Below, in pieces: positions 8,316-35,694 of a stretch of DNA of 64,000 nt; within the stretch, counting starts at the first letter, position 1, and every line of letters begins with the position of its first letter. The notes beneath the pieces are model-generated. The model was not told the DNA's origin. It was given only the letters and a program-made list of their open reading frames with translations, and did not search any database. Made by a program: the position numbers and the translations under genes. Source of the stretch: Anaerolineaceae bacterium. GTDB taxonomy: Bacteria > Chloroflexota > Anaerolineae > Anaerolineales > Anaerolineaceae. Location of the stretch: the NCBI GenBank assembly GCA_035388405.1, contig DAOOPV010000007.1, positions 63 through 64,062 on the forward strand, given 5' to 3'.

Positions 8316-9320
8316 TTAGAAAAGCGCTAACAGTGCAGGCAGCGCGTTTTGGAAGAGCCAGTAAAACAACCCTCCAACGAGCATGGTCGCGGGAATGGTG
8401 ATAACCCAGGCAATCATGATCTCACCGGCCACACCCCAACGCACTTTGCTCATCCGTTCGGCAGCCCCAACACCCATGATGGATGAACTCACCACCTGGG
8501 TTGTGCTGACGGGGCTCCCCAGCAGGGAAGCGGCAATGATTACGATTGCGGAAGTGATCTGCGAGGAAAAGCCGTGGACCGGGCGAATTTTGTAGAACTT
8601 CGAGCCAAGGGTTTTGATCAACTGCCAGCCGCCGAGGGCGGTTCCGATGGCAATTGCTGTCGCGCAGGCTAGCACGACCCAATTTGGCACATGGAAGGTG
8701 GACTGAAAACCGGTAATAACCAAACCGAGGGTGATGATACCCATGGTTTTCTGGGCGTCGTTGGTGCCATGGCTAAGAGCCAGCCCTAAAGACGTGATCA
8801 CCTGTAGTTTCTTGAAGACCCCGTTAATTTTTGGAGTTGCTTTCCAGGAAAGGAGATACACGATGTTGGCAATGATGATGCCTGCCACGAAACCGATGAC
8901 CGGTGAGGCAAATAAGCCAATTAAAATCTTGGTAATACCCTTGATGAGCAGTACCTTGAAACCGGCTTTCACTACCACCGCGCCAATCAAACCGCCGATG
9001 ATGGCATGCGAGGAGCTGCTTGGGATACCCAGGATCCATGTCAGCACGTTCCAAAAGATCGCGCTGAAACACGCAGCCAGGAGCACCATCATGTTGATGT
9101 GTTCAGCGGCGACGATGTCGTTGCCAATGGTGGTAGCGACCGCAACGCCGAAGATAAACGGGCCGACAAAATTCGCCAACGCGGTCATCAGCAGGGCGAT
9201 CTGCGGGCGGATAGCGCGCGATGAGATCATGGTGGCGACGATGTTGCTGGAGTCGTGGACACCGTTGAGGAAATCGAAGATCAACGCGAAGATGATGAGA
9301 AGGATCAGTGAAGCTTCCAT
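8316..9320 (-). CDS. pit: Inorganic phosphate transporter, PiT family
   Basis: 334 aa and polytopic. It has the duplicated PiT signatures GVHDSSNIVAT and GTNDAQKTMGII. Confidence 0.85.
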   Translation of the reverse strand: MEASLILLIIFALIFDFLNGVHDSSNIVATMISSRAIRPQIALLMTALANFVGPFIFGVAVATTIGNDIVAAEHINMMVLLAACFSAIFWNVLTWILGIPSSSSHAIIGGLIGAVVVKAGFKVLLIKGITKILIGLFASPVIGFVAGIIIANIVYLLSWKATPKINGVFKKLQVITSLGLALSHGTNDAQKTMGIITLGLVITGFQSTFHVPNWVVLACATAIAIGTALGGWQLIKTLGSKFYKIRPVHGFSSQITSAIVIIAASLLGSPVSTTQVVSSSIMGVGAAERMSKVRWGVAGEIMIAWVITIPATMLVGGLFYWLFQNALPALLALF

Positions 9321-9331
9321 AATTCTCGGCG

Positions 9332-9952
9332 TTACGAGGTCTTGACCACAATGTCCGCCAGGACGTTGGCGGCTTCATCACTTCGATCCGCGGCATTGCT
9401 CAAGTGGCGATAAACTTCGCGCATCTTCATCGCCTTGACGACACCTTTCAGGTCTTCCGTGTCCTTGAACATGTTCGCCAGGGCTTCCCGGTAGACATGT
9501 TCAATCTTGTTTTCGACCTTTTTGGCGCGGTTGGCATGTTCGGCGGTCACACTCGGGTGATCCTGCAAGCACTCCACGGCCTTCAGCATTTCGAAAGTAG
9601 ATTCCTTGAGCAGTGTGCAGATCTGCACCATGTATTCGGTGGGTTTGACCTTGAAAATGACGATCTCGGTCATGGTGCTATAGGCATAATCTAAAATATC
9701 GTCGATTGCCCTTGAAAGCGCGAAGATATCTTCCCGGTCAAAGGGGGTAATGAAGGTGCGATTCAGTTCATCAATCAACAATCGGCGCGCTTCATCCGCT
9801 TCTTTTTCCTTTGCGGTCAGCTGATCCGCGATTTTTGTGTCGGGATTGATCATGTACGCCAGCAATAGATCTACGCCTTCCAGGGTCAGATTGGTTTGCT
9901 CTTGAATTCTCTGCAGGAAAATATCCCGGCGTTTCTTAAAGATTTTCAACAT
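9332..9952 (-). CDS. DUF47/PhoU-like phosphate-transport regulator partnered with PiT
   Basis: 206 aa, helical. It sits immediately upstream of pit in the usual DUF47-PiT pairing (EADEARRLLIDELNRTFITPFDREDI). Confidence 0.75.
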   Translation of the reverse strand: MLKIFKKRRDIFLQRIQEQTNLTLEGVDLLLAYMINPDTKIADQLTAKEKEADEARRLLIDELNRTFITPFDREDIFALSRAIDDILDYAYSTMTEIVIFKVKPTEYMVQICTLLKESTFEMLKAVECLQDHPSVTAEHANRAKKVENKIEHVYREALANMFKDTEDLKGVVKAMKMREVYRHLSNAADRSDEAANVLADIVVKTS

Positions 9953-11679
9953 GATGTATTCCTCCGTTCAGAGTAGATACTGGCAATACAGCCAGTTTTT
10001 TCCAATAATTTCAGACCAGGCAAGAAATCCTCATACGCAGCTGCGTTGTTGATCTCGAGCGTCCGGACTGCGTGAGCAGGCAAATAGCTTGCCAGCCAGG
10101 CAAAGTCAACATCTCCGGTGCCAGGGAGTTGGTGATCCACGATGTCTTTTACATCATGGAGGTGGACTCCTACCATCCTTGGTGAGAAAGCCTCCAGCCA
10201 TTGTTTGAAAGACATCAATCCAAGGCGATCGTGCACCTGGATGTGTCCAACATCCAATTGCCAGCCCACCCAAGGCTGCTGGAATTCATCCAACAGGACT
10301 TCCAATTCCTCGAAGATGGGGAGTTCGTAGTGATGCAGGCGGTTCTCCAAGCCAAGAAACACACCCAAATCCTTGGAAAAGTCCACGATCTCGGTCAGAC
10401 TGCGGATCAATGCTTCGAGGTGGGGTTTTCCGCGTTCAAGCCGGTCTTTGATCAATTCTTTCCGCAGGGTTTCGTATCCCAGGGTTCCCTTGAGCCCTTC
10501 GCGATACATATCCCTCAGGCGGCTGTCCATGGAGTGGTCGCCATCCACCCGACCTGGGTGGATAACCACGAGCCTGGAACCCAGGCGCCAGGCCAGTTCA
10601 ATGGTGCGTTTTAGCGTGTCCACTCCGACGCGTCTGCGTCCTTCCACCAACGATGTGACCTGAAAATCACCCAATTCGAGCTGTTTGTTCGGGATCACTG
10701 CTGGACAGGGGTCATGGACCGACCCGACATGGTAGCGGTTAAAGTCAAAAGTTTCCAATTCTTCAGGGGTAATCTGGTGATTAAGCTCAAACCGCGCAAA
10801 GCCCAATTCGCGACCCTTGCGGCAAAAATCGTTGGCACTATCGGTGGAACGTGACCACCACATGGTTGAGAGCGCCGCGTCGTAGAGCGTGTCCGAAGCC
10901 AAGGTGGGGGTTGTCACTAAATGTGACCACGCGCCAGGAAAATGTGCCAAACTCTCGTGCAGGGAACTCACGGTGACATCCGCCTGCATTGGGCAAGGGT
11001 TTTCTTCGCGCAATTCAGTCTGGGACTCGATCATGACTACCAGGCCGATGCCAGCTTCGCGCGCGCCAATCAGATCCCGCGAGGGACGATCGCCGATGTA
11101 GGCGCATTCTTCCGGGCGGACACCAAGAGCCTGTGCCGCGGCGATGAAAGGCGAAGGGTGCGGTTTGCGCTTGCCGAAATCTGCGGCTTGCAAAGTGATA
11201 TCAAATAAATCTTTGATGCCAGCCTTATCCAGGAACCTGGGTGAGGTGTGGCTGACAGTTCCGAGGCGATAGCCCCGTTCCTTCAACGTTTTCAGCGCAC
11301 GGATTGTTTCAGTGGGGATGAAACGTTTTCCGCGGGAGTCACCCCACCAGGTCTGTAGTTTATTCGCGTGCTCCGCAATGAATGCAGTGGGGAACTCTGG
11401 CAGCAAGTATTTGCTCCAGCGTTCGGAATAGGACAATTCATCAAGGGAGCGGTAAGACCACTCCTTGTATTCCTTCTCACGTTGGGTGAGCCTTTGGATG
11501 AAGCTCTCAGGACTTTCTTTGAGGTTTAAGAATTGAAGCATCTCAGAAATGATTTCAGGATCCCTGGAATCGTGGTTCAGTTTTTGAACGATTGTGCCAC
11601 CCAAATCAAACAGGATAACCTTGAGTTGGTTTTGATTTTGTGTGGTGATAGCTTCTGGCGAAGAGCAATTAATTACCAT
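9946..11679 (-). CDS. Fusion protein: HAD-like hydrolase domain (N) plus xylose-isomerase-like TIM-barrel sugar-phosphate isomerase/epimerase domain (C)
   Basis: 577 aa. HAD motifs: ILFDLGGT (motif I variant), VSHTS, GKRKPHP, YIGDRPSRDLIGAREAG. The C-terminal half has VVIHPG, GLENR and DVGH, which are TIM-barrel metal-ligand style motifs. Confidence 0.75.
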   Translation of the reverse strand: MVINCSSPEAITTQNQNQLKVILFDLGGTIVQKLNHDSRDPEIISEMLQFLNLKESPESFIQRLTQREKEYKEWSYRSLDELSYSERWSKYLLPEFPTAFIAEHANKLQTWWGDSRGKRFIPTETIRALKTLKERGYRLGTVSHTSPRFLDKAGIKDLFDITLQAADFGKRKPHPSPFIAAAQALGVRPEECAYIGDRPSRDLIGAREAGIGLVVMIESQTELREENPCPMQADVTVSSLHESLAHFPGAWSHLVTTPTLASDTLYDAALSTMWWSRSTDSANDFCRKGRELGFARFELNHQITPEELETFDFNRYHVGSVHDPCPAVIPNKQLELGDFQVTSLVEGRRRVGVDTLKRTIELAWRLGSRLVVIHPGRVDGDHSMDSRLRDMYREGLKGTLGYETLRKELIKDRLERGKPHLEALIRSLTEIVDFSKDLGVFLGLENRLHHYELPIFEELEVLLDEFQQPWVGWQLDVGHIQVHDRLGLMSFKQWLEAFSPRMVGVHLHDVKDIVDHQLPGTGDVDFAWLASYLPAHAVRTLEINNAAAYEDFLPGLKLLEKTGCIASIYSERRNTSC

Positions 11680-11691
11680 AATGAATCGTTT

Positions 11692-13401
11692 CTATACCTT
11701 CTTTACGCAGCCACGGTCGACCAATACCTCGAGACCGCGGGCTATTTGATTTGTTGTGCAGTCTGGCGAAACCTCAAGAGTTCGAAAAATACCGTCTGCC
11801 AAATAAGGGGAAAAGCTCGAAAAATCGACTTCGCCCATACCCGGGGCTAAATGATCCTGCAAGCCGTTCACATCGTGTAAATGCATGCCAATCAGGCGGT
11901 GGTGGAAGCGGCGAAGCCACTCGCCTTTGCCAACCATCCCCAACACTTCCAGGTTGTGAGCATGACCAGCATCGTACTGGAAGCCAAACCAAGGTTCATC
12001 ACACAGCTGCAGGAAGGTTTCCATTTCATCCGGCAGCGGCAAGTCGTGATACCGGTTTCGGTTTTCGAGACCGATGGTGATGCCGGAACCCCTGGCGAAG
12101 GCAATCATTTCCTCCAGGCTGCGGAGCACCTGGCTGAGGTGGGGCTGTTTGTGTTGGTCTCTATCGGCAACGTAATCCTGTTGGAGTTGGATATATTCCG
12201 GAGAGCTGGACTTGCCCTGTAGATACCATTCCCGGATTTTTGTATCCCTGGAATGATCGCAGTGTACCGAACCGCAGTGCACCACCACCGAACGTGAGCC
12301 AAGGCGGACTGCCAGGTCGATGGAACGTTTCAGGTTGTCGACTGCCTTGATGCGGTGGTTTTCATCCAGGCTGGAAAGGGAAATATCCTGTCTCTTCAAC
12401 TCTGTATACCCAAATTCTGAAGGGCAGGGGTCGTGGAGCGTGGCGACGTAATACTTGTTTCGATCCCATTCCTGGTACAAGCGAGGGGTGACCTTGTTGC
12501 TGAATTCAAAGCTGACAAAACCCAGTTTGCGGGCTAAGGCGAAAGTCTCAGAAAAAGGCATCTCCTGATCAGCGCTCCACATCGTGGAGAGCGAAATGTC
12601 GTAAAGCATTTCAGGTTGTTTGGGTTCGATCTCCTTTGAGATAGTCCCATCTACGCCATGGAAGATCTTCAACAACTCGCCAAGGCAACCGATCCGATAT
12701 TGGGGTTTGGTCTCCGTGATGGTTTCTGCCTGGAAGTCATCATCCGGGTCATACTCATCCGTTTGATATCCGCTCATGTTTACGATGATGACCGTGCCAA
12801 ACCCAGCTTGCATAGCCCCGACAAGATCCCTTGAAAGGTTATCTCCGACGTAGGCACAATTCTGGGGCAATACGCCCATTCCCCTTGCGGCTTGCAGGAA
12901 CATGGATGGATGTGGCTTTCGGCTGCCAACCACGCAGGATAAGATCACCGGGTGGAAGTATTCAGTCAAACCATTGTCAGCCAACATGGCGGGGGCTTCG
13001 ACAGATGAGGTCGTGTTGCTTACGATTGAGAGTTTATAGCCCCGTTTGGCAAGTGTTTTGATGGTGTCGACCGCGTCCGGAAAAATCTGGTTATTCCGGG
13101 AAGCCCGCCACATTTGATTTAGCGTGACAGCGTTTTGCCAGACGAATTCGTGGGGAAAGTCGGGCAACATAAATCGCGTCCAAAGTTCCGTCTCGGGCAG
13201 CTCGAGGAGAGTCTTCTTACACCACCTGCGGTATTCCTTCTCGTGTTTTCGAAGCAGGCTCAGGAAGTCAGACGGTTCACCCTCCACCCCCAGGAAGGAT
13301 TGCAGATTGCGGATGTAATCCAGGTTCCCTTCCCTGTTTTTGATGGTCGCGCGGAGTGTGCCACCAACGTCGAAACAAATCGCTTTAATTTCACCAGTCA
13401 T
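11692..13401 (-). CDS. Paralogous HAD-like plus xylose-isomerase-like TIM-barrel fusion protein
   Basis: 569 aa with the same architecture: ICFDVGGT, VSNTTS, GSRKPHP, YVGDNLSRDLVGAMQAG, then VVVHCG, GLENR, DAGH. Confidence 0.75.
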   Translation of the reverse strand: MTGEIKAICFDVGGTLRATIKNREGNLDYIRNLQSFLGVEGEPSDFLSLLRKHEKEYRRWCKKTLLELPETELWTRFMLPDFPHEFVWQNAVTLNQMWRASRNNQIFPDAVDTIKTLAKRGYKLSIVSNTTSSVEAPAMLADNGLTEYFHPVILSCVVGSRKPHPSMFLQAARGMGVLPQNCAYVGDNLSRDLVGAMQAGFGTVIIVNMSGYQTDEYDPDDDFQAETITETKPQYRIGCLGELLKIFHGVDGTISKEIEPKQPEMLYDISLSTMWSADQEMPFSETFALARKLGFVSFEFSNKVTPRLYQEWDRNKYYVATLHDPCPSEFGYTELKRQDISLSSLDENHRIKAVDNLKRSIDLAVRLGSRSVVVHCGSVHCDHSRDTKIREWYLQGKSSSPEYIQLQQDYVADRDQHKQPHLSQVLRSLEEMIAFARGSGITIGLENRNRYHDLPLPDEMETFLQLCDEPWFGFQYDAGHAHNLEVLGMVGKGEWLRRFHHRLIGMHLHDVNGLQDHLAPGMGEVDFSSFSPYLADGIFRTLEVSPDCTTNQIARGLEVLVDRGCVKKV

Positions 13402-13423
13402 ATTTGGGTCCTGTCTGTTTTTA

Positions 13424-14854
13424 TCAGCCCTGCAAGCAGGACACCTTTGGAATTTCGCGAATATCGTTTATGTATGCATCTGCCAGGGTTCCAGCGTCGT
13501 AGTTTAGCGCGATGGTTTTCATGCCAATCTCGCGCGCTCCGTCGATCTCTGCTTTCTTGTGCCCCACAAAGACCGCGTCGCAAGGATCCACGCCAACCTG
13601 GGTCAAGGCGCGCTGGTACATTTCGGGGTCAGGTTTGCGCGCGCCAACTTCTTTTGAGCTGATCACAGAATCCCAGACTCTGCCAAAACCATGCTGGTCA
13701 AACCAATTCAGTTTGATCGAGAAAGCCATGGCGGTGTCGGTGATGATACCGAGCATGTACCCCCTTTCTTTGAGTTCCAGGATCGTTTCTGGAGCTCCGC
13801 AGATGATCTCGACGTTGTTGTCGTCGGCTTGCATCGCGTCCATCCCCTCAGAAATCAAATCCGGATCCGTAATGCCAAGAAAACGGATAAGCTGTTCATA
13901 AAAGCCGTGGCGCGGGAGTTTGCCTGTGAATGCCAGCGCTTTAAGTCGTTTTCTCTCATCATCGAAACCTTTTGGAAATTCCAACTGGTGTGAATCAAGA
14001 AACGCTCTAAGATGCTGATCTTTATGCGGCCTGGTGTAGAGGATGTCGCCGGCGTCAAAGAAGATGGCCTTCACTTTGTGTCCATTATCGTTTCGAGCTG
14101 TCTGCGCGTCCTGGTCGAGGTATTGCTTGATCAGTGGGATCAATTCGGTCATGTCGTCGATCTGGGCATCAGGCTTGGCGCCTTCGTCAGGTTCACCATT
14201 ATCATAGATGTGGTGGATCTTGATGGCTGCCCTGAAACCAGCTCTTTGCGCACCCAGGATGTCGCGGTTGACTTTGTCGCCGATGTAGATACAAGCGCTG
14301 GTTGGCACCTGCGCCAGGCGTGCCGCGTGGTAAAAAATTGCCGGGTCAGGTTTGCGCCGACCATATTCGGAAGAGAGAACAACCGGGTCAAAGTAGCAGT
14401 CAATCCCATACTCCTTGAGGCTGTAAGGGACCTGTTGACTGCTCTGTGTGTTGCTGATGCAACCTATCTTTAAGCCCATTTTCTGGATTTCAGCCAGAAC
14501 CTGCGGAATTTCAGGACGCATCTTACGCGTAAACAGACGTGTTTCGTAGATGAAGGCCAACTCCTCGGCAATGGGTTTCAAATCTGCAGGGTTCAGGTGG
14601 AGATCTTTTAGGAAATAGGTTGCCCAGATCTCGGCTGGTTTGAGCTCCACGTTGGTTACCATGTTCCAGCGCAGATACTCTGACGTGCCTGCCGTGATCA
14701 TGTCTGCCAGGCATGTGTCCGAACAGGAGTTTATGATGCCTGTACGGCTGAGGCATTCGCGTACCGCAGAAACAGCCTTTATTCTCTGTTCCCTGGTGTA
14801 ACGGAATGTGTCAATCGTACCTCCCATGTCGAAAAAGACAGCTTTAAGCATCAT
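13424..14854 (-). CDS. Tandem double HAD-like hydrolase
   Basis: 476 aa. The first domain has VFFDMGGT...ISNTQS...GRRKPDP...YIGDKVNRDILGAQRAG. The second has IFFDAGD...ITDTA...GARKPDP...FVGHKKAEIDGAREIG. Confidence 0.75.
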   Translation of the reverse strand: MMLKAVFFDMGGTIDTFRYTREQRIKAVSAVRECLSRTGIINSCSDTCLADMITAGTSEYLRWNMVTNVELKPAEIWATYFLKDLHLNPADLKPIAEELAFIYETRLFTRKMRPEIPQVLAEIQKMGLKIGCISNTQSSQQVPYSLKEYGIDCYFDPVVLSSEYGRRKPDPAIFYHAARLAQVPTSACIYIGDKVNRDILGAQRAGFRAAIKIHHIYDNGEPDEGAKPDAQIDDMTELIPLIKQYLDQDAQTARNDNGHKVKAIFFDAGDILYTRPHKDQHLRAFLDSHQLEFPKGFDDERKRLKALAFTGKLPRHGFYEQLIRFLGITDPDLISEGMDAMQADDNNVEIICGAPETILELKERGYMLGIITDTAMAFSIKLNWFDQHGFGRVWDSVISSKEVGARKPDPEMYQRALTQVGVDPCDAVFVGHKKAEIDGAREIGMKTIALNYDAGTLADAYINDIREIPKVSCLQG

Positions 14855-14898
14855 AGTGTCACCGTGTTGTATTTGTAATTTTTTGACCCGTTTTTTTT

Positions 14899-14933
14899 AT
14901 CAGGCACGAATTTTTTGAGGATTCGTGCCTGAT
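14899..14933 (-). terminator. Strong stem-loop downstream of the ABC substrate-binding-protein gene (13-bp stem, no canonical U tract)
   Basis: atcaggcacgaat / tttttgagg / attcgtgcctgat, read directly. On the minus-strand RNA the hairpin is followed by AUAAAAAAAAC rather than U-rich sequence. It may be an mRNA-stabilising or attenuating hairpin rather than a classic terminator. Confidence 0.45.
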
Positions 14934-14959
14934 TGATCGAAAATCTCAGCAGAATCTGG

Positions 14960-16165
14960 CTATTTGCCCAAATTCAGCAGGTAGAAATCACGTGCTTCGA
15001 GCATGTGATCGTAGGCGTATTGTTCAGCAATGAACCAGGTCATCTCGAACATTTCGTCCAATGGTTTCTGTCCCTCAGGAACCTCGTAGGTTGAATCGGG
15101 GAAGTAGGTGCCGAACTTGGCCCATGGGTCACGACCATCAGGACTGGTGACAAACTTGACCCAAAGCTTGGCGGCGTTTGGATGCGGTGCCTGGTTGATG
15201 ATACCGACGTAGCTCTGGCTCTGGACACCCAGCTTTGGCTGGATACCCCAGCAGGGTTCAAACGCCAGGATGCCTTCCTGTACATCAGCCATGTTGGAAT
15301 AGGAGGTAAGAGCCATGTAGCTCTCGGTCATTCCAGGGGTCGCGAAGGCGGAATCGACTTCATCACCACCGGGTTGAGGGATGGGGCCGTTCTGCGCGAA
15401 GCGCTTGAGCCACAACCAACCAGCATCAGGGGTATCTGCGTCCAAAACAGGCTCGCTGCCGTAGAGGTCGACATAGGCTTGTTTGACTTCGTCAGCATGG
15501 AATGCAAAGGTGATCAACTTGCTTAAAGTTGAGGCATCATTCAGAGGATCTTCAATGAAGAATTTCCCTTTCCATTCCGGCTGGGTGAGTTCCCAGATGT
15601 TAGTAATGGGGCAGGTGTCGTTCAGTTCAGAGTTGTAAGCAAACACGCTGGTTCCAAAGCGGCTCATCAGCAAGGGTTGGGTGTACTGTTCTGGCGTGTA
15701 AGCGGCTGTGGAATCGGGTACGAAGCGCCAAACGTAATTCTTGGGCAGCACTTGCCCAACCAGGTCTGCACCACCACTGCTAAACCAGACATCACCGGTG
15801 AATGCTCCAGCTTTTTGTTCCTCGAGGGTTTTCATGAGGACATCGTCACCGCCAAGGTCATAAGCTTGCACGTTGATCTCGGGATAGAGTTCCATAAAGG
15901 CTTCAGCAGCCTTTTCGACCTTGGACGAGTTGGCATAGACCAAAACTGTTCCTTCTTTTTTGGCTGCTTCCTCGATCGCCGCCCAATCCTGGGTGCCGGT
16001 TTCGTACTCGCCCAGCAGATTGGCCTTCAACCATTCCTGTTGGAGGGTGAGGGTTTCGGGCTGAGCGACTGGTTCAGTTGCGGCGGGTTCTGCTGGCTTT
16101 GCGCCGCAGGACACGAGCATTGTGATCACGAGGATCAATGCTGCTAATCTAAAAAATGCTTTCAT
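14960..16165 (-). CDS. ABC transporter substrate-binding lipoprotein (family-1 solute-binding protein)
   Basis: The preferred start is ATG 16165 (MKAFFRLAALILVITMLVSCGAKP, a signal peptide plus lipobox Cys), preceded by AGAAGGAGAAAG. It sits next to the ATPase and permease genes. Confidence 0.8.
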   Translation of the reverse strand: MKAFFRLAALILVITMLVSCGAKPAEPAATEPVAQPETLTLQQEWLKANLLGEYETGTQDWAAIEEAAKKEGTVLVYANSSKVEKAAEAFMELYPEINVQAYDLGGDDVLMKTLEEQKAGAFTGDVWFSSGGADLVGQVLPKNYVWRFVPDSTAAYTPEQYTQPLLMSRFGTSVFAYNSELNDTCPITNIWELTQPEWKGKFFIEDPLNDASTLSKLITFAFHADEVKQAYVDLYGSEPVLDADTPDAGWLWLKRFAQNGPIPQPGGDEVDSAFATPGMTESYMALTSYSNMADVQEGILAFEPCWGIQPKLGVQSQSYVGIINQAPHPNAAKLWVKFVTSPDGRDPWAKFGTYFPDSTYEVPEGQKPLDEMFEMTWFIAEQYAYDHMLEARDFYLLNLGK

Positions 16166-16290
16166 TTCTTTCTCCTTCTGTAGTTGGTTCAAAGTTGTTA
16201 AAAACATCGACTGTCCATTGCTCAGTTTTCTTCTCTCTAATGACCTCCTTGGCAGGTAACAAAAAGGGTTCACTGGATTCTCGACTCTCT

Positions 16291-17373
16291 CTACGCAGTA
16301 ATAAGTGCTTCAGTTTCTTTATCGTAAAGGTTGATCGCATCTTCCTTGAACGACAACCAGATGGGTTGATCCATCTGGATCTTGCTGACACCCATTTCTT
16401 TAATGGTCAGCTCGGTGTCACCCTTGCGGGCAATAATGGTCGTATCGGCGCCTGAGGGTAAAACTGAATAGGCGGCGAATTCGACAGCTCCGTCAGTCGG
16501 TTCATTGTGGATGATGATATCTTCAGGACGTAAACCCACCACGACATCACCCGTTTTGTTGTAAGTTTTCACCGGGATGTTGAACTTACCGATGTCCACC
16601 AGGTTCTGACCCGACACCCATCCGGGCATCAGATTGACCTTTGGATTGCCAATGAAATCGGCCACAAAAAGATTGGCTGGATAGTGGTAGACCATATCGG
16701 GGGTATCCAATTGTTGGATGACGCCCAGTTTCATTACCGCAATTTTGGTGGACATGGTCATGGCTTCGACCTGATCGTGGGTCACATAAACCGTTGTGGC
16801 ATCAGAAATGTGGTGCAGACGTTTCAACTCAGTGCGCATATCCATTCTCAGGCGGGCGTCCAGGTTAGAGAGGGGTTCGTCCATCAGGAAGACTTTTGGT
16901 CGGTATGCAAGCATCCGAGCCAGGGCAATACGCTGCTGCTGACCACCACTCATTTCGCGAGGATAGCGGTCTTCGTAACCCGCCATCTGCACTTCTTCAA
17001 GGGATTCTTTGACCCGGATATCCATGTCTGCTTTCGACATTTTCTGAATTTCAAGCGCGAAAGTGATGTTCTTATAGACGTTCATGTGCGGCCATAAAGC
17101 ATAGTTCTGGAAAACCAATCCCAAATCCCGCTGCCCAGAGGGGAGTGATATGCCCTTTGAGCGTGAATAGACCAGCTTGTCGCCAATGATGATCTCTCCA
17201 TCATCCGGGTCTTCCAAACCTGAGATACATCGCAAAAGGGTGGTTTTACCGCAGCCGGAAGGTCCCAGGAGTGTCAGGAACGAACCGGGCTCGATGGTCA
17301 CGCTTACGTTATTGACCGCAACGACATCCCCGAATTTTTTTGTTAAGTTCTTAATAATAATTGGTGTATCCAT
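16291..17373 (-). CDS. ABC transporter ATP-binding protein (MalK/PotA/UgpC-like with C-terminal regulatory domain)
   Basis: Walker A GPSGCGKTT, signature MSGGQQQR, Walker B VFLMDEPLS. 360 aa. Confidence 0.9.
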   Translation of the reverse strand: MDTPIIIKNLTKKFGDVVAVNNVSVTIEPGSFLTLLGPSGCGKTTLLRCISGLEDPDDGEIIIGDKLVYSRSKGISLPSGQRDLGLVFQNYALWPHMNVYKNITFALEIQKMSKADMDIRVKESLEEVQMAGYEDRYPREMSGGQQQRIALARMLAYRPKVFLMDEPLSNLDARLRMDMRTELKRLHHISDATTVYVTHDQVEAMTMSTKIAVMKLGVIQQLDTPDMVYHYPANLFVADFIGNPKVNLMPGWVSGQNLVDIGKFNIPVKTYNKTGDVVVGLRPEDIIIHNEPTDGAVEFAAYSVLPSGADTTIIARKGDTELTIKEMGVSKIQMDQPIWLSFKEDAINLYDKETEALITA

Positions 17374-17385
17374 GTTCTCCTCGTT

Positions 17386-19221
17386 TTATAATCCCAAGCC
17401 TTTTTTCAGGCTTCCGCCGCGGAACCGGCTGATAAGAAAGTTGCCCGACAGGACAAGCACGATCAGAATGATGATGACAGCGTTAGCTTGTTGTTCATTT
17501 CCATTTTCGATGTACCGCATGGTCTGGCTTGCCAGCACAGCGGTAGTGGGGGTGACCAGCAGAATGATCAGCGAAAGCTCGCGCATGGTCGTGATGAAGG
17601 TCATCAGGAACCCGGAGACAAAACCGGTGCTGGTCAGCGGGAAGATAATGCGCTTAAACCGTCTCCATGGTCCTGCACCCGCGATGGCTGCGGCTTCTTC
17701 CAATTCTTTACCGACCTGCAGCATAGCTGAGACGCCACTGCGGGCAGAATATGGAATATGCTTAGCGACCGATACCACCACCAGCAAGGCAAAGGTGCCA
17801 TAGAGGGCAGGGATCGGTCCCACCGATTTTGTGAACATCGAAATATAAACCGCGCCGAAAGCAATACCCGGAATTACGTAAGGAATAAATGCTATTTGCT
17901 CGACGATTTTTGAGAGCTTTGTTCCACGACCTTTGACGATGGCATAGCCAAGGATCACCCCCAACAAGGCCGTGAATGTTGCGGTAAAGAAGGATAGTCG
18001 GATCGAATTCCAGGCTGCCAGGTAAATCTTCCTGTTCAGCAAGACACCCGGCTCACCACTGTTGATGTTCATGACGCCTTTGCCGATCCAGTGCTCCAGA
18101 GTAAGGTTGCTGAAACTGTAATCACCCGTCCTGAGCATGAAAGTGCTGTAGATCAGCAGGGAGAGGGGTAACACTGCAATGAAGAATTGGAAGATTACCA
18201 CCAAGGTAGTGAGCAGACCTTTGAAGTTGCGAAGTTTCTGCTTTTGCGCCATAAAACCGCGTCCGCCGATGGTTTCGTAACTCTTCCTGGTGCCCACCAG
18301 TTTTTGATTGATCATGATAGTCGTCATGGCAAACAGGATCAAAACGATCGCCAGGACAAAACCATCTCCATAATTTCCAATACCCGTATTTGACCTGAGC
18401 ATGGTTGAGAGCGTGTAGTATTGCACCGGAACGCCCAAGACGTTCGGTCCACCGAAAGTACCCATGGTCTTTGAGAAGGTCATGATGAAGCCAGAGGCAA
18501 TCGCGGGAATGACCAGGGGGAAAGTGATCTTCCTCATGATGCGCCAGCGACCTGCGCCAGCTAATTCGCCTGCTTCCTCAAGAGAAGAGTCGATGGAGAG
18601 CAAAGCTGCTGAGACAAACAGGAAAAAGAAGGTGTAATAATGAAGAGCACTGCTGACGATGATTGGAACCGGACCGTATGCCAGCCAATCGGGTGTTGGG
18701 CTGTGTGTCAAAAACTCCAGCAATCCTGGAGTTCCACCAGATGTCTGGTTCTTGAAAAGCACGATCCAAGCCTGCGCGATTGTCCAGGAGGGCATGATGT
18801 AGGGAACTGTTGCCAGGGTGTTGATAATTCCTTTGCCTGGTACGTCGGTTCTGACCACCAGCCAAGCCATCAAACCGCCAATCACCAGGGCAAGACCTGT
18901 AGCACCAAGGGAGATGGTCAGCGAATGCAGGAGCGGCTCGTACGTCATGATCTCGCTGATTTTGCTGCTCAGCATCCGGACCCAGTGGTAAAACGTCAGG
19001 TCTCCGATTTCTGCTCCAGGAATGGCGCGAAGATCCATTTCCTGCACTGAGAAGGTGGTAATGATCATGCGGTACAGTGGAATAATAACCATGTAGACCA
19101 TCACAGCCAGCATGATCAAGGAAAGCACAACATGCGGGCTGCTCAGCCAATGGAAAAATCGGCGTAAGCGCGCATTCCAGTTTTGTCCGGATGATGGAAC
19201 TGTTTTTGATGCTACAGCCAT
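17386..19221 (-). CDS. ABC transporter permease, fused double-permease type
   Basis: 611 aa with two tandem 6-TM halves, as seen in FbpB/ThiP-like permeases. It is adjacent to the ATPase gene. Confidence 0.8.
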   Translation of the reverse strand: MAVASKTVPSSGQNWNARLRRFFHWLSSPHVVLSLIMLAVMVYMVIIPLYRMIITTFSVQEMDLRAIPGAEIGDLTFYHWVRMLSSKISEIMTYEPLLHSLTISLGATGLALVIGGLMAWLVVRTDVPGKGIINTLATVPYIMPSWTIAQAWIVLFKNQTSGGTPGLLEFLTHSPTPDWLAYGPVPIIVSSALHYYTFFFLFVSAALLSIDSSLEEAGELAGAGRWRIMRKITFPLVIPAIASGFIMTFSKTMGTFGGPNVLGVPVQYYTLSTMLRSNTGIGNYGDGFVLAIVLILFAMTTIMINQKLVGTRKSYETIGGRGFMAQKQKLRNFKGLLTTLVVIFQFFIAVLPLSLLIYSTFMLRTGDYSFSNLTLEHWIGKGVMNINSGEPGVLLNRKIYLAAWNSIRLSFFTATFTALLGVILGYAIVKGRGTKLSKIVEQIAFIPYVIPGIAFGAVYISMFTKSVGPIPALYGTFALLVVVSVAKHIPYSARSGVSAMLQVGKELEEAAAIAGAGPWRRFKRIIFPLTSTGFVSGFLMTFITTMRELSLIILLVTPTTAVLASQTMRYIENGNEQQANAVIIILIVLVLSGNFLISRFRGGSLKKGLGL

Positions 19222-19338
19222 CTTGTCTCTCCTCTCAGTACAATTACTACCTTTACATATCTCTTGTGCATACTAGAACATTGAACCTCCAGGTGTAAAG
19301 ATTTTCCAGTACTTACATACTGTTTATCAGTAAAAGCG

Positions 19339-20229
19339 TCACTCATCCGCGCAGGTGTTAAACGCCTTCAACTGATCCCGTAGATTGTCAAGCTTGTCAA
19401 GCAGCGTCATGGATTTTTCTTGTTCCATGCTTGCCAGGGATAACAGCAGCGCGTTGATGACTGTCATGGGAACAACCAAAGAATGGAATTCACCGATCGG
19501 ACCGCGTTTCGCTGACAAGACCACGTCCACCTTATCGCCAAGGATGGCTTCGAGCGTGTCGGTGAGCATAATGATGGTTGCGCCAACTTTGTTGGCGTAG
19601 TCAATGACCAATTTGAGAGCAGGGTTCTGATCGAAGAAGCAGATCACAAACAAAAGATCCTTTTCTTCCATCATCGTGAGGTATTCGAGAAACTCGCGAC
19701 CTGAGCTTGTAAGCGGAACAACTTCGCGTCCGAATCTGCGCAGGCGGAGCTCAAGGAGGTCTACCAATGAGACCGATGGACCGAGCCCAAAGACAAAAAC
19801 GCGGTCGTGTTCATGCAGAATCTCGACCGCGTTGTTTAATTCTTCGCGTTTGATGGAATCCAACGCCTGGGACAGAAAATCAATTTCTGTTGCTGTCAGG
19901 CGCTCAAAGATGTCGCCGCCGTCCCGGAGGTCGTTCAGCCTGCCGCGTAAGCGGGCGGAGTGAGTTACCCGCCGGCGGAAATTGTCTTGCAGGACCGCGC
20001 GCATAGTCGGGTAACTGCTGAAGCCAAGACTGCGGGCAAAGCGTACCAGGGTCGCCTCGCTCAGATCCAGCCGACTGGCAATTTCGCCAGCAGAAAGGAA
20101 CGCGGACTCCTCCTGGTTTTTGCGAAGGAAGTTGGCAATACGCTTTTCGCTCTTGGTCAGGTTATTGAAATGATCAGTCAGAACCTGGCTGAAGTCAATT
20201 TTTGGGGGAGATTTTGAAGGGCTGTTCAT
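19339..20229 (-). CDS. MurR/RpiR-family transcriptional regulator (HTH plus SIS domain)
   Basis: RIANFLRKNQEESAFLSAGEIASRLDLSEATLVRFARSLGFSSY is the HTH_6 region, and the C-terminus is SIS-like. The preferred start is ATG 20229 (MNSPSKS). Confidence 0.8.
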   Translation of the reverse strand: MNSPSKSPPKIDFSQVLTDHFNNLTKSEKRIANFLRKNQEESAFLSAGEIASRLDLSEATLVRFARSLGFSSYPTMRAVLQDNFRRRVTHSARLRGRLNDLRDGGDIFERLTATEIDFLSQALDSIKREELNNAVEILHEHDRVFVFGLGPSVSLVDLLELRLRRFGREVVPLTSSGREFLEYLTMMEEKDLLFVICFFDQNPALKLVIDYANKVGATIIMLTDTLEAILGDKVDVVLSAKRGPIGEFHSLVVPMTVINALLLSLASMEQEKSMTLLDKLDNLRDQLKAFNTCADE

Positions 20230-20307
20230 AACACCTCGGTGCAGATCCTTGATCAAAAAAAGGGACAACAATATCTGTGTTCGTGAAATACCACTTACAT
20301 TTGAAAC

Positions 20308-20336
20308 AGTATAGTGCAATTGAATAAAAATTGCAA
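20308..20336 (-). promoter_or_regulatory. Sigma70-like promoter candidate for the RpiR gene (TTGCAA-17 nt-TATACT on the minus strand)
   Basis: The minus strand reads ttgcaa tttttattcaattgcac tatact. This puts the -35 at 20331-20336 and the -10 at 20308-20313. The short inverted repeat tgcaat..attgca overlaps it. Confidence 0.4.
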
Positions 20337-22788: not shown

Positions 22789-22825
22789 GGCGTGCCTCTT
22801 CTCTCTTGTTTTCTCTATCCATGCA

Positions 22826-24026: not shown

Positions 24027-25604
24027 TTACCAGGGAGTACCCTGCCCCAGTACCATCGCTTCGTAGGCTTTTTTGATCTTGCCGTAATTACCATCCCGGT
24101 CCAGGGCGATCCCTCGTCCGACGGCGGTGACGATCGTCCCAAGTCCGATTTTGCGCATTTCACCCTCCAGCTTTTCCAGCAGGGCTGGTGCGCTGCCTGG
24201 CTCGGTGCTGCGTCCATCAAAGATCAGGTGCAGAAACGCGTTTGATAGACCTTTTTCTTTAGCCATTCGCAGGAGAGCCAGGGGGTAGTCGATTGAACCA
24301 TGTGAGCTTTTCTCGGTCAGGAGGCCGATCAGGTGCAGATTGCTCCCTTTGCGGAGGACGTTTTCGATCGTCTCGACGAAGACTTCATTTTTCGCAAACG
24401 AGCCGTCTTTAAGCGCCAGATCCAGGCGCACGTCATCTTGCAAAACAACCCGCCCCGCGCCAATGTTCATGTGACCCGCTTCCGAATTGCCAGGCTTGCC
24501 GGCTTGCAACCCAACCGCTTCACCGGAAGCTTGCAGATGAGCCAGTGGAAAATCCCGGCAGAGAGCATCCCAGGTGGGTGTGGTTGCGACAAAAATGGGA
24601 TTGTTTTCGTCCTGGCTGCCTTCCCCCCAACCATCGAGGATGATCAGCAGAACCTTGCGGTCCTTTCCCCAGTAGTGGGGTTTCACCAAGGCTGCACCCG
24701 TCATGGAAGGATGTGTTTCGACACCCAGTATGTCCAAAATGGTCGGGGTGAGGTCCCGCAGACTGCCATCTGAGAGTTGAATGTCACCCTTAGCCTGGGG
24801 GTCGATCACGATAAAGGGCACCAGGTTGGAAGTGTGTGCCACGTGCGGCTTGCCTTCAGCGGTAAGCAGCACTTCAAGGTTGCCGTGGTCGGCTGTGATC
24901 AGCGAAACATAACCCCCGGATTTGGCAACCTGCAAAACCCGGGCAAGGTGCTCATCCACAGCCTGGGCGCAAGCAATCTTCGCTTCGCTGTTACTGGTGT
25001 GCCCAATCACGTCACCGTTGGCAAAGTTGGTCACGATGCAGTCAATGCCTTCTCGCAGACCGCGAATGACTTCATCAGCCACAGCGGGCAGGCTGAGCTC
25101 CGGAACCTGGTCAAAGGGGATGCCTTTGGGTGAAGGGACACGCACATCCACTTCGCCGGGGTAAGGCTGATTGTTTCCGCCATTCAAAAAGAAGGTGACG
25201 TGAGCGAATTTTTCGGATTCCGAGCAGCGCATTTGCGTTTTGCCAGCCTTGCTCAGGAGTTCGCCGAGGGTGTGGTCGAGTTTTGCGGGCGCAAAAGCAA
25301 CCGGCAGGTCTTTGAATTTGTCGTGATACAAAGTGAGGATGACAAATTCGAGGTCCTGCAACCGAGTGCGTTCAAAATGCGCAAAATCGGTTTCAGTGAA
25401 GGCTTCGGTAAGCTCAATTTCCCTCTCGCCCCGGCGGCAGCAGAAAATGACCGCGTCACCGTCCTGAACCTTTGCGAAGGGCTGCCCCTCCGGATTCAGG
25501 CGCACGTGAGGCTCCATGGAATAATCGGTCTGTCCGCGCGCGTAAGCTTTGCGAACTGCTTCAGCGAGGAGAAAGCCGCCGTGTTTGACTTCACTCGTGT
25601 TCAT
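24027..25604 (-). CDS. Circularly permuted 2,3-bisphosphoglycerate-independent phosphoglycerate mutase (GpmI-family) homologue
   Basis: All iPGM signature blocks are present but reordered. NGDVIGH, TADHGN and the C-terminal MTGAALVKP lie at aa about 195-308. The canonical N-terminal blocks LLIILDGWG and GNSEAGHMNIGAGR lie at aa about 318-385. The protein ends at ...LDRDGNYGKIKKAYEAMVLGQGTPW, which is a mid-protein block in canonical enzymes. Confidence 0.8.
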   Translation of the reverse strand: MNTSEVKHGGFLLAEAVRKAYARGQTDYSMEPHVRLNPEGQPFAKVQDGDAVIFCCRRGEREIELTEAFTETDFAHFERTRLQDLEFVILTLYHDKFKDLPVAFAPAKLDHTLGELLSKAGKTQMRCSESEKFAHVTFFLNGGNNQPYPGEVDVRVPSPKGIPFDQVPELSLPAVADEVIRGLREGIDCIVTNFANGDVIGHTSNSEAKIACAQAVDEHLARVLQVAKSGGYVSLITADHGNLEVLLTAEGKPHVAHTSNLVPFIVIDPQAKGDIQLSDGSLRDLTPTILDILGVETHPSMTGAALVKPHYWGKDRKVLLIILDGWGEGSQDENNPIFVATTPTWDALCRDFPLAHLQASGEAVGLQAGKPGNSEAGHMNIGAGRVVLQDDVRLDLALKDGSFAKNEVFVETIENVLRKGSNLHLIGLLTEKSSHGSIDYPLALLRMAKEKGLSNAFLHLIFDGRSTEPGSAPALLEKLEGEMRKIGLGTIVTAVGRGIALDRDGNYGKIKKAYEAMVLGQGTPW

Positions 25605-26396: not shown

Positions 26397-26427
26397 TATT
26401 CAGCCTTCCTATTTATTATTACCGTGT

Positions 26428-27309: not shown

Positions 27310-27325
27310 ATGCACACGTGTGCAT
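27310..27325. promoter_or_regulatory. 16-bp perfect palindrome ATGCACACGTGTGCAT, candidate LacI-family operator (copy 1)
   Basis: Read directly. It is self-complementary, lies between the -10 candidate and the regulator's RBS, and recurs at 34551-34565. Confidence 0.65.
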
Positions 27326-27338
27326 AAGGAGAAACGTA

Positions 27339-28364
27339 GTGGCAATCACCATCAAGGACATTGCAAAAAGGGCAGGAGTTTCTCACTCGACGGTCTCCCG
27401 TGCCTTGCGAGTAAATCGCCTTGTGTCCAGTGAAACTGCCCGGCGTATCCACGACATCGCCCAGGAAATGGGCTATCGACCCAGCGCAGTGGCGCGCAGT
27501 CTCAAAACCAACCGCACCCAGGTTCTGGGCGTGATTGTCAGCAGTATTTCCGATCCTTTTTTTGGCGAGATCCTCAATGGGATCGAAGCGAGCGCGCAGG
27601 CTGGCGGTTATAGCCTGTTTATTGCGGCTTCCCAGCATGATCCAATTAAAGAACGGCAAATCGTTCAGACGATGATGGAGCAGCGTACCGAAGGGGTAAT
27701 TATTTGCTCATCTTCCTTCAGCCCTGAACACGGACGCCAGCTGCTTTCCTATGGATTTCCAGTTGTGGTGGTCAACCACCAGGGCAGCGAAAGTTTTAAC
27801 TATTCTATTTACCATGATGATATCGACGGCAGCTCGCAAATCACCCGGCATCTGATTTCGCTGGGACACAAAAGAATTGCCTATCTTGGTAACTCCCAAT
27901 CCGGCAGGACCACACAGGACCGGTTGCGGGGTTTCCTGGACGCCATGGCAGAAGCTCACTTGGAAGTGCCAGAGAATTACGTCCATCACGTGGAGGGCGG
28001 TGAACCCCTCCTGGGCGCTGAAAGCGTCCGATACTTCGCAAGACTGACTCCGAGACCCACCGCGATCATTTGTTTTAACGACATGCTGGCGATTGGTGTG
28101 CTCAAAGGCTGTGAACAGTCCGGTTTACGGGTTCCAGAAGACATTTCGGTGACCGGTTTCGACAACATAACCTACTCAGCGTTTACAACGCCTTCTCTGA
28201 CCACTTTTGATCAGCCAAAATTTTCCATCGGACAGGAAGCTGCTCAACTTCTATTGGATTTGCTCCAAGCCGAGGATGGAATTATCCCGGACATGCCAAA
28301 TGTGAAAGTGCTAAAAGGGAAGCTGTTGGTCAGAGGATCAACCGGAATTCCTGGTGAGGTTTAA
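27339..28364 (+). CDS. LacI-family transcriptional regulator
   Basis: HTH TIKDIAKRAGVSHSTVSRAL plus a periplasmic-binding-protein-like core. The preferred start is GTG 27339, preceded by AAGGAG with a 7-nt spacer. The ORF-track start is 27318. Confidence 0.85.
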   Translation: MAITIKDIAKRAGVSHSTVSRALRVNRLVSSETARRIHDIAQEMGYRPSAVARSLKTNRTQVLGVIVSSISDPFFGEILNGIEASAQAGGYSLFIAASQHDPIKERQIVQTMMEQRTEGVIICSSSFSPEHGRQLLSYGFPVVVVNHQGSESFNYSIYHDDIDGSSQITRHLISLGHKRIAYLGNSQSGRTTQDRLRGFLDAMAEAHLEVPENYVHHVEGGEPLLGAESVRYFARLTPRPTAIICFNDMLAIGVLKGCEQSGLRVPEDISVTGFDNITYSAFTTPSLTTFDQPKFSIGQEAAQLLLDLLQAEDGIIPDMPNVKVLKGKLLVRGSTGIPGEV

Positions 28365-28371
28365 TCCATTT

Positions 28372-29886: not shown

Positions 29887-29887
29887 A

Positions 29888-30721: not shown

Positions 30722-30725
30722 AGCA

Positions 30726-31979: not shown

Positions 31980-31999
31980 TCTTTAGCAAATAAGGAGAA

Positions 32000-33409: not shown

Positions 33410-33423
33410 AGAGGCGAGATTGC

Positions 33424-34512: not shown

Positions 34513-34550
34513 AGGATCCTGAAGTGTGACTGACTTTTATTTATTAACGA

Positions 34551-34565: not shown

Positions 34566-34593
34566 ATAATAGAAAACAAGGAGATTAAAGAAA

Positions 34594-35637: not shown

Positions 35638-35694
35638 ACACCTGGAGCAATTATTCTCTCCCCTTCCAACATGGAGGGGAGATGAAGGAAAACA

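Follow-up and report, generated by a model that had tools for sequence, protein, structure and literature searches.

Cofactor-independent phosphoglycerate mutase (iPGM), a glycolytic enzyme of two domains familiar from textbooks, is also a drug target against parasites. A gene of this family, in which the two halves of the chain are exchanged, lies in the window, by which is meant the whole 64,000-nucleotide stretch of the Anaerolineaceae bacterium contig DAOOPV010000007.1 that was analysed. The gene and its parts are as follows (aa, amino acids; canonical numbering is that of Geobacillus stearothermophilus iPGM).

24027..25604, minus strand: complete coding sequence of the permuted iPGM-family protein, 525 aa plus stop, ATG start; GenBank HOZ37525.1
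25613-25617, minus strand: Shine-Dalgarno sequence GGAGG, 8 nt 5' of the ATG, read directly from the sequence
25563..25604, minus strand: new N-terminus, aa 1-14, without canonical counterpart and of low model confidence
24684..25562, minus strand: aa 15-307, equivalent to canonical 218-509; second part of the transferase domain and C-terminal part of the phosphatase domain
24660..24683, minus strand: linker, aa 308-315, PHYWGKDR, connecting the old C-terminus with the old N-terminus
24036..24659, minus strand: aa 316-523, equivalent to canonical 4-211; N-terminal part of the phosphatase domain and first part of the transferase domain
24207..24209, minus strand: codon of Ser466, giving a DGRS signature instead of the canonical DGRD (Asp154)

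It belongs to a train of genes of ~19 kb, which is followed by a divergent regulator.

26428-27159 and 25629-26396, minus strand: two HAD-IA hydrolase genes directly upstream of the permuted iPGM
22826-24004, minus strand: Udk/PRK-like kinase, downstream of the permuted iPGM
21583-22791 (listed open reading frame up to 22899), minus strand: archaeal-type ApgM paralogue, two genes downstream of the permuted iPGM
20356-21579, minus strand: second Udk/PRK-like kinase, downstream of the ApgM paralogue
8316..20319, minus strand: rest of the gene train, comprising RpiR, a fused double ABC permease, an ABC ATPase, a binding protein (14960-16273), a double-HAD protein, two fusions of HAD to a xylose-isomerase-like TIM domain, PhoU_div and a PHO4 phosphate transporter
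27318..28364, plus strand: divergent LacI-family regulator, present in 42 of 50 loci and followed by UxaE, IolM-like, IolG and IolN genes

HOZ37525.1 is a clean circular permutant of iPGM, as had been proposed in the sequence-only reading. In a phmmer search against the PDB, residues 4-211 of the G. stearothermophilus enzyme (1EJJ) aligned without gaps to query residues 316-523 (i-Evalue 4.9e-48) and residues 218-509 aligned to query residues 15-307 (i-Evalue 1.3e-62), values that rule out a chance match. The same two offset diagonals were seen when a canonical representative, P0135, was compared with the 64-kb window by tblastn. Identity to canonical GpmI is ~41-46% per segment, and homology extends over essentially the whole length. 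The Pfam Metalloenzyme and iPGM_N profiles each fall in two stretches in rotated order, the best being residues 24-296 (profile positions 48-251 of 252) and 396-522 (3-129 of 217), respectively, and the precomputed Pfam order in permuted proteins is iPGM_N-Metalloenzyme-Metalloenzyme-iPGM_N. The chain therefore reads transferase-C, phosphatase-C, linker, phosphatase-N, transferase-N, and the collinear canonical order is absent. The protein scores 476.4 bits with TIGR01307 (cutoff 330.65), although this is a sum over two stretches, and 400.7 with NF003897 (cutoff 862). Every motif quoted in the earlier reading is present, and the linker it had located, HYWGKDR, occupies aa 309-315 (nt 24660-24680).

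Both old termini lie within the phosphatase (Metalloenzyme, alkaline-phosphatase-like) domain, while the chain is opened in the transferase (iPGM_N) domain at canonical ~211-217, in a surface loop flanked by two helices; this is the placement of termini that had been foreseen. Both inter-domain hinge crossings are retained. The breakpoint at ~211 is common to all 22 permuted representatives, whose linkers vary in sequence and span 5-10 aa. Natural circular permutants have homologous folds in rotated order, and are usually explained by duplication and fusion followed by truncation at both ends. The permuted iPGM has the parent fold in its predicted structure, joined old termini, a single internal site of new termini and conservation within a lineage. 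Unlike in the general scheme, no tandem iPGM-iPGM intermediate was found among the over-long matches (590-2349 aa), all of which were canonical iPGMs fused to unrelated domains.

Could the rotation be an artefact, either of assembly (a misjoined or chimeric contig) or of a tandem duplication that left a pseudogene now in decay? Nothing was found in favour of this explanation, which was a concern in advance for a lone metagenomic contig, and it can be given almost no weight. The identical protein was recovered on five contigs of independent origin (NCBI, JGI, ENA and Logan), and at least 120 clusters of full-length collinear relatives were found at 64-98% identity. In at least 80 species genomes, most of them of the class Anaerolineae and one of them that of the cultured Levilinea saccharolytica (strain KIBI-1, NZ_LGCM01), the gene has a collinear orthologue of full length; among the best 80 species-genome matches, all 80 have the same chain order. 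The gene is under strong constraint, with a dN/dS of ~0.09 (range 0.07-0.11). It has a clean Shine-Dalgarno sequence, and no iPGM remnants were found in its tight flanks. Misassembly or chimerism, which the sequence-only reading had wished to see excluded at the junction, is ruled out by the conservation, the five-contig recovery and the dN/dS. An AlphaFold2 model of the protein is also confident (pLDDT 90.3, pTM 0.86), including the linker (pLDDT ~92); confidence is low at the N-terminus, where aa 1-4 fall below 50 and the block 1-10 has a mean of 62. The best Foldseek matches of this model are iPGM structures, with an rmsd of 2.7 A over one diagonal; because Foldseek alignment is sequential, it confirms that diagonal only.

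The catalytic apparatus of iPGM can be traced through both segments, with the following equivalences (permuted residue first).

aa 15-307: R58 = R261, R61 = R264, K132 = K336, D198 = D403, H202 = H407, D239 = D444, H240 = H445, H257 = H462
aa 316-523: D324 = D12, S374 = phospho-Ser62, H378 = H66, H435 = H123, R465 = R153, S466 in place of D154, R497 = R185, R503 = R191

The two-metal ligands Asp12, Asp403, His407, Asp444, His445 and His462 are thus present as D324, D198, H202, D239, H240 and H257, and the phospho-accepting Ser62 is the invariant S374 of a GNSEAGH motif (canonical GNSExGH). Fourteen residues (D12, S62, H66, H123, R185, R191, R261, R264, K336, D403, H407, D444, H445 and H462) are found in 22 of 22 permuted representatives and are likewise invariant in a 53-sequence family alignment. 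The substrate ligands of the canonical transferase domain, His123, Arg153, Arg185, Arg191, Arg261, Arg264 and Lys336 (structures 1EJJ/1EQJ), have their equivalents in H435, R465, R497, R503, R58, R61 and K132, all invariant in the window orthogroup. As the two-metal site, phospho-serine, cationic substrate ligands and hinges are all kept, the permuted enzyme should work by an iPGM-like mechanism, judging from these conserved residues.

Of 104 canonical-conserved columns, 85 are kept. The clade that contains the window gene has other residues fixed at 17 positions that are invariant in canonical iPGMs. One of these is Asp154, presumably a 3PG ligand or active-site residue of canonical iPGM; a search of the searchable literature for its role found nothing. 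Asp154 is kept in 116 of 119 canonical representatives, whereas Ser466 is invariant in the window orthogroup, and serine occupies the position in 15 of the 22 permuted representatives. The substitutions cluster near substrate ligands: V122S beside H123, D154S beside R153, N259C and D263E beside R261 and R264, and also H128Y and E231Y. Val64 is replaced by Ala within GNSEAGH. Together, the 17 changes may tune the specificity of this clade.

Three rare metagenomic proteins, P0142, P0146 and P0159, are opened in the same loop and have the same joined termini, but differ from the window clade in retaining DGRD and, at 16 of the 17 sites that set the clade apart, the canonical residue (the exceptions being Ile for Val at position 64 in P0142, and positions 194 and 196 in P0146, whose sequence ends before them). 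The gene for P0159 overlaps the stop codon of pgi in a housekeeping region. In a neighbour-joining tree the window clade was recovered in 300 of 300 bootstraps; the three proteins are nearer in distance to canonical iPGMs and grouped with the window clade in only 9 of 300. They may stem from separate permutation events, or be basal members that evolve slowly. The family linkers are too variable for alignment and hence give no signal on a single versus multiple origin. A metagenome scan with the DGRD-type P0159 returned canonical iPGMs at 79 of 79 classifiable loci and no further permuted DGRD contexts. These proteins undercut the earlier suggestion that the permutation itself implies a substrate other than 3PG/2PG, as does the invariance in the window family of each known 3PG ligand but Asp154. 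There are other grounds on which a specialised or shifted role is plausible, namely the fixed substitutions close to the pocket and the conserved operon context.

That context was surveyed at 50 orthologous loci of the window orthogroup. The upstream HADs and RpiR are present in all 50, the ATPase in 49, the permease in 48, ApgM in 45 and the kinases in 41, which shows the co-occurrence with a PRK-like kinase that the sequence-only reading had proposed to check. The upstream HADs carry D-x-G rather than D-x-D as motif I, without the usual Asp+2; six HAD domains are encoded in the operon, and P0029 is a fusion of the permuted iPGM with a HAD of the upstream type. The permease resembles PhnU2/ModB/CysT, that is, an anion type, and the binding protein gives only weak matches of the FbpA class. 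Single-sequence and profile searches of the kinases against the PDB gave generic UCK/PRK matches and one weak GLYK match, and no relative of the N-terminal ~180 aa of the kinase was found in Pfam or the PDB. The ApgM paralogue scores above the NF003160 cutoff. IolG and IolN, also above their cutoffs, belong to a set of inositol/hexuronate catabolic genes transcribed divergently from the shared LacI gene; the inositol genes are missing from Christensenellaceae and Bacillota loci. Transporter linkage persists at L175, the locus of a distant relative with 38% iPGM identity. Here a full-length homologue of cyclic-2,3-diphosphoglycerate (cDPG) synthetase lies 5 nt upstream of the permuted gene; in the window and all fetched loci, this homologue was found at L175 alone. 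2PG is the starting compound of the cDPG pathway (PMC10690619).

The best explanation, with a probability of roughly 0.6 and judged from sequence and gene context, is that the protein is a functional, evolutionarily stable iPGM permutant, most likely a pathway-dedicated mutase for phosphoglycerate or a very close analogue. A short linker would have reconnected the old ends of the ancestral chain, C-terminus to N-terminus, and the chain would have been opened at canonical ~211-217. The domains would close on an anionic phosphoester, the phosphoryl group moving to Ser374 at the Mn site; the substrate would then reorient and receive the phosphoryl back on a neighbouring hydroxyl. In Anaerolineae the gene is not a free-standing glycolytic gene but a fixed member of a regulated, ABC-transporter-linked operon, where a dedicated mutase would feed or drain the operon's pathway. 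Phosphoglycerate-type chemistry is most likely, supported by the cDPG synthetase neighbour at L175 and a pathway that begins with 2PG. Nevertheless, 3PG/2PG may not be the substrate, because Asp154 is Ser and 16 other canonical-invariant sites differ, and the operon encodes a second PGM-type enzyme, which is ApgM-like and would look redundant if both were plain 3PG/2PG mutases.

It is possible, if distinctly less probable, that the substrate has shifted further, making the protein a phosphomutase, phosphotransferase or phosphatase for another anionic organophosphate brought in by the operon's ABC transporter. This compound could be 2,3-bisphosphoglycerate, possibly arising from cyclic 2,3-DPG, or else an inositol phosphate or a sugar acid carrying phosphate, and Asp154 to Ser would remove a negative charge from the site of a second phosphate or of a larger group. 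The 17 fixed substitutions, clustered by substrate ligands, are consistent with this, as is the conserved, regulated operon with its anion-type permease, FbpA-class binding protein, six HAD domains, two kinases, second mutase and phosphate transporter; so too are the HAD-iPGM fusion, the cDPG synthetase homologue, and IolG and IolN, which score above their cutoffs and are transcribed divergently from the shared LacI gene. However, all cationic 3PG ligands and His123 are kept, the TIGR01307 score is still above its cutoff (over two summed stretches), and the active-site role of Asp154 is a presumed one. An ordinary phosphoglycerate mutase would suit the cDPG neighbourhood equally, because that pathway starts from 2PG, and the inositol genes, although adjacent here, do not accompany the Christensenellaceae and Bacillota loci. 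A bolder and somewhat more doubtful form of the idea holds that the window clade comprises not 3PG/2PG mutases but phosphoryl-shuffling enzymes, which would belong to an undescribed pathway by which Anaerolineae and some Bacillota scavenge organophosphates. The anion-type transporter would take up a poly-phosphorylated vicinal-diol compound, perhaps 2,3-bisphosphoglycerate or cyclic 2,3-DPG released by methanogens that live alongside, or inositol phosphates destined for the adjacent IolG/IolM/IolN pathway. Its processing would fall to the permuted iPGM with its Asp154-to-Ser change, together with the ApgM paralogue, the HADs of the atypical D-x-G type and both new Udk/PRK-like kinases, and moving the termini into the substrate-binding domain would have permitted fusion to, or docking of, a HAD partner. 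At the other extreme, the protein might be a housekeeping glycolytic mutase, permuted and located in this operon by happenstance. Intact catalytic and substrate residues, the JGI annotation of the family as iPGM, and the positions of P0159 next to pgi and P0131 next to phosphoglucomutase speak for this, yet it is improbable: in 50 of 50 Anaerolineae loci the gene belongs to an operon under substrate control (RpiR, LacI) that includes a transporter, an unusual setting for a housekeeping gene of glycolysis; another PGM-type gene is present in the operon, and near-invariant canonical sites have diverged.

P0131 is a distant DGRS-type member, and its housekeeping-like context runs against an operon-dedicated role. 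It also rules out the simple rule that a DGRS signature denotes a specialised operon.

Among known systems, the protein is closest to canonical GpmI (1EJJ/1EQJ/1O98; TIGR01307; PF01676 and PF06415), with which it shares both domains, the metal ligands, the phosphoserine, the Arg/Lys/His ligands and the two hinges. Unlike GpmI, its chain is rotated, with termini at ~211-217 and the old termini bridged by 5-10 aa; the window clade is altered at the 17 sites, and the gene resides in a specialised operon instead of a glycolytic or stand-alone context. ApgM (PF10143; 2ZKT, 3IDD, 3KD8) is likewise a member of the alkaline-phosphatase superfamily, and its annotated reaction is the same, but it has another, smaller cap domain and is unpermuted; the permuted protein scores a weak 31.7 bits with TIGR00306.

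A natural, strongly selected permutant, present in hundreds of species, indicates that the hinge-closure mechanism of iPGM tolerates a cut in the substrate-binding domain, and provides a ready-made system for relating topology to dynamics. The gene has a fixed place in a ~19-kb operon, alongside HADs of atypical type, novel kinases, another mutase and a transporter of the anion type, and this is the mark of an uncharacterised pathway. Anaerobic digesters and sediments are rich in Anaerolineae, whose metabolic reconstructions are affected by the mis-annotation or lack of annotation of this family. No description of a permuted iPGM was found in the searchable literature, in keeping with the sequence-only reading, which knew of none; NCBI lists the proteins as 'hypothetical protein' (HOZ37525.1) or 'sulfatase-like', and JGI as plain iPGM.

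The cofactor-independent phosphoglycerate mutase (iPGM) of the window is encoded by a single reading frame, preceded by a Shine-Dalgarno sequence, GGAGG, 8 nt 5' of the start and separated from its neighbours on both sides by only ~24 nt:

24027..25604, minus strand: permuted iPGM ORF, 525 aa, ATG start

In a phmmer search of all PDB sequences, the Geobacillus stearothermophilus iPGM (1EJJ) gives two strong, non-overlapping matches in rotated order. Chain residues 4-211 correspond, ungapped, to query residues 316-523 (i-Evalue 4.9e-48), and chain residues 218-509 to query residues 15-307 (1.3e-62). The same two diagonals are recovered by tblastn with a canonical representative, a search that found no second iPGM in the 64 kb window. 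The Pfam families Metalloenzyme and iPGM_N are both present, each split in two, and the C-terminal end of the protein corresponds to positions 3-129 of the iPGM_N profile; TIGR01307 also matches in two stretches (476 bits). The rotated order of the iPGM halves proposed in the sequence-only reading is thus borne out, and its motifs, linker position and end point were all correct.

The permutation is real, on five independent grounds: databases, species genomes, assemblies, selection and a structure model. Searching a protein database with the window protein retrieved no fewer than 120 clusters, 64-98% identical to it, of equal length and collinear over 98-100%. A scan of species genomes found relatives encoded in at least 550 stretches, and orthologues of the same order do exist, the match being full-length and collinear in 80/80 of the best loci. 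Nearly all of these 80 belong to the class Anaerolineae (Anaerolineaceae, Leptolinea, Bellilinea, Longilinea, Anaerolinea and the cultured Levilinea saccharolytica KIBI-1), plus one Bacillota MAG. GenBank lists the exact protein under accession HOZ37525.1 as 'hypothetical protein [Anaerolineaceae bacterium]', and its sequence occurs on 5 contigs sourced from NCBI, JGI, ENA and Logan. Measured against seven orthologues, whole-gene dN/dS is 0.07-0.11, with constraint weaker, as would be expected, around the linker and new N-terminus. An AlphaFold2 model built from a 53-sequence family alignment has a pLDDT of 90.3 (~92 in the linker region) and a pTM of 0.86. Its top Foldseek matches in the PDB are all iPGM structures (rmsd 2.7 Å); the alignments span only ~277 columns (TM ~0.48), since sequential alignment is confined to one diagonal.

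Circular permutation is a well-known phenomenon. No account of a permuted iPGM turned up in a literature search, and NCBIfam has no dedicated model; family members are labelled 'hypothetical' or 'sulfatase-like' at NCBI and plain iPGM at JGI.

The break falls at one canonical position, ~211, in 22/22 full-length permuted representatives (two are shorter), and the old termini are joined by a linker of 5-10 aa, variable in sequence. In the AlphaFold2 model the breakpoint lies between the helices at aa 507-519 and aa 10-22, which places it in a transferase-domain loop. Since both old termini lie within the phosphatase domain, both inter-domain crossings are kept, which would fit a retained hinge-closure mechanism. 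The equivalents of D12, S62, H66, H123, R153, R185, R191, R261, R264, K336, D403, H407, D444, H445 and H462, which are reported for the iPGM structures 1EJJ/1EQJ as catalytic residues and substrate ligands, are invariant in the orthogroup of the window protein and present in 22/22 permuted representatives each, except R153 (19/22). The window protein is a circular permutant of the iPGM family that is conserved, under selection and in possession of the full catalytic set.

Among the top 150 matches in a library of 50%-identity representatives, 20 clusters were permuted (15 full-length) and 126 canonical. When permuted sequences were computationally rotated back into the canonical order for alignment with 119 canonical representatives, 19 permuted representatives, including the window protein, formed an exclusive clade in 300/300 neighbour-joining (NJ) bootstraps. 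Three rare representatives share the breakpoint and lie nearer to the canonical enzymes than this main clade does:

L008:6556-9626, also L006 and L007: loci of rare permuted iPGMs P0159, P0142 and P0146

They joined the main clade in 9/300 NJ replicates and each other in 38/300, figures that long-branch effects may influence. Their placement could mean that the same permissive loop was opened on more than one occasion, or that permutation happened once and the main clade then evolved faster; the three may represent independent events. Separately, two distinct permuted clusters, P0094 and P0109 (sharing 66% and 65-66% identity with the query), have a longest contig of the same length (391,887 bp, ENA), which suggests two paralogues within one genome.

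The well-supported main clade carries fixed differences at canonical-invariant sites. Of 104 columns at least 85% conserved in canonical iPGMs, the 120-member orthogroup keeps the consensus at 85 and is fixed to another residue at 17: A24P, V64A, I82L, V122S, H128Y, D154S, M188L, W194Y, R196K, E231Y, N259C, D263E, Y366F, M372L, M402V, V403I and A415C. Several of these adjoin substrate ligands in sequence. P0142, P0146 and P0159 have the canonical residue at 16/17 of these positions, the exception being position 64 (a conservative Ile for Val in P0142); P0146 is truncated before 194 and 196. The P0159 gene overlaps the pgi stop codon, among housekeeping genes. Pocket divergence and permutation are therefore separable, and permutation by itself is compatible with an ordinary glycolytic role, which undercuts the earlier suggestion that the changed topology implies a substrate other than 3PG/2PG.

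The permuted iPGM lies in a minus-strand gene train, in the order HAD, HAD, permuted iPGM, Udk/PRK-like kinase, ApgM-type mutase, second Udk/PRK-like kinase, RpiR, fused double ABC permease (PhnU2/ModB/CysT-like), ABC ATPase, binding protein, double-HAD, two HAD::TIM fusions, PhoU_div and the phosphate transporter PHO4. This uncharacterised operon adds to the interest of the enzyme.

21583-22899, minus strand: listed ORF of the archaeal-type ApgM paralogue (NF003160, 567 bits vs 468 cutoff)
20356-21579 and 22826-24004, minus strand: two paralogous ~400-aa kinases, C-terminal Udk/PRK-type P-loop domain
9946-13401, minus strand: two paralogous fusions of HAD to a xylose-isomerase-like TIM barrel (AP_endonuc_2), 577 and 569 aa

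With its listed GTG start (22899) the ApgM ORF overlaps the kinase gene that precedes it; translation probably begins at the ATG at 22791, giving 402 aa, in agreement with 401-aa orthologues. In the PDB the kinases match uridine-cytidine kinases and PRK best and D-glycerate-3-kinase (7XPC) weakly; for their conserved ~180-aa N-terminal domain no sequence relative was found in Pfam or PDB.

Operon genes in 50 orthologous loci, each of at least 19 kb
Both HADs: 50/50
RpiR: 50/50
ABC ATPase: 49/50
ABC permease: 48/50
ApgM-like: 45/50
Double-HAD: 44/50
LacI: 42/50
Each Udk/PRK-like kinase: 41/50

Operon membership is obligate in Anaerolineae, and co-occurrence with the PRK-like kinases is found. 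In a Christensenellaceae genome only LacI, three HADs and the permuted iPGM are kept, and a Bacillota MAG retains ABC transporter, HAD, iPGM and HAD. In one lineage the upstream HAD is joined to the iPGM N-terminus, the new terminus in the substrate-binding domain:

L003:10001-12361 and L004:10001-12361: HAD::permuted iPGM fusion P0029, 786 aa

On contig_4127 (535 kb; L005 / L023) most genes around the permuted iPGM are broken into short ORFs, with UxaE in three pieces, ApgM, PRK and permease split and the iPGM ORF intact, which suggests a frameshift-prone long-read assembly or decay.

The HAD domains of the operon (9946-14854 and 25629-27159, minus strand) have D-x-G, not D-x-D, as motif I in 6/6 cases (FLDVGNTL, FLDLGNTL, FFDMGGTI, FFDAGDIL, CFDVGGTL and LFDLGGTI), and have no Asp+2, the residue that serves as general acid/base in typical HAD phosphatases and mutases. 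Escherichia coli YihX, an alpha-glucose-1-phosphatase, has a similar DLGN motif, and by this analogy phosphoesters with good leaving groups may be the substrates of the D-x-G HADs. The HAD::TIM fusions, with the D-x-G HAD N-terminal and the barrel C-terminal, are of unusual architecture and occur in 11-12/50 related loci, a count bounded by flank length.

The permuted iPGM is deeply linked to one ABC-transporter family. A main-clade member only 38% identical to the window protein (L175) is accompanied by a homologous transporter (43% for the permease, 50% for the ATPase, 29% for the binding protein), and lies 5 nt downstream of the following gene:

L175:6420-7784, Logan SRR20999789 contig: full-length cyclic 2,3-diphosphoglycerate synthetase homologue (PDB 8ORU, E = 1.7e-114)

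The pathway of this synthetase starts from 2-phosphoglycerate, and cDPG is said to occur in hyperthermophilic methanogens exclusively (PMC10690619). The L175 setting, with a GntR/UTRA regulator, ABC transporter and permuted iPGM, is bacterial-looking. Of other distant members, one adjoins phosphoglucomutase and another overlaps an AP_endonuc_2 gene.

Divergent from the operon, and sharing its LacI, is a catabolic cluster, an inositol-to-hexuronate pathway of the Thermotoga maritima type:

27318-43729, plus strand: LacI, UxaE, SDR, LarA-like, 6-phosphogluconate dehydrogenase, PfkB, IolM-like ADH, IolG (424 bits vs 355 cutoff), IolN (310 vs 245), ADH, AP_endonuc_2, FAD-linked oxidase, ETF beta/alpha

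The inositol/hexuronate genes IolG, IolN, IolM-like dehydrogenase and UxaE are those divergent from the shared LacI. We infer a putative iPGM mechanism on phosphoglycerate or a close analogue, in a pathway-dedicated enzyme that would form a phosphoserine intermediate at the Mn site, with domain closure. Candidate substrates are 3PG/2PG, 2,3-BPG or a cDPG-derived compound, inositol phosphates and sugar-acid phosphates.

Elsewhere in the window, positions 50562-63982 encode a large serine recombinase, a MobA/VirD2 relaxase, a Schlafen/AlbA_2 protein, a CHAP-domain protein, a TraG-like P-loop ATPase and a 950-aa RadC-ArdC-metallopeptidase polyvalent protein, and look like an integrative or conjugative element.
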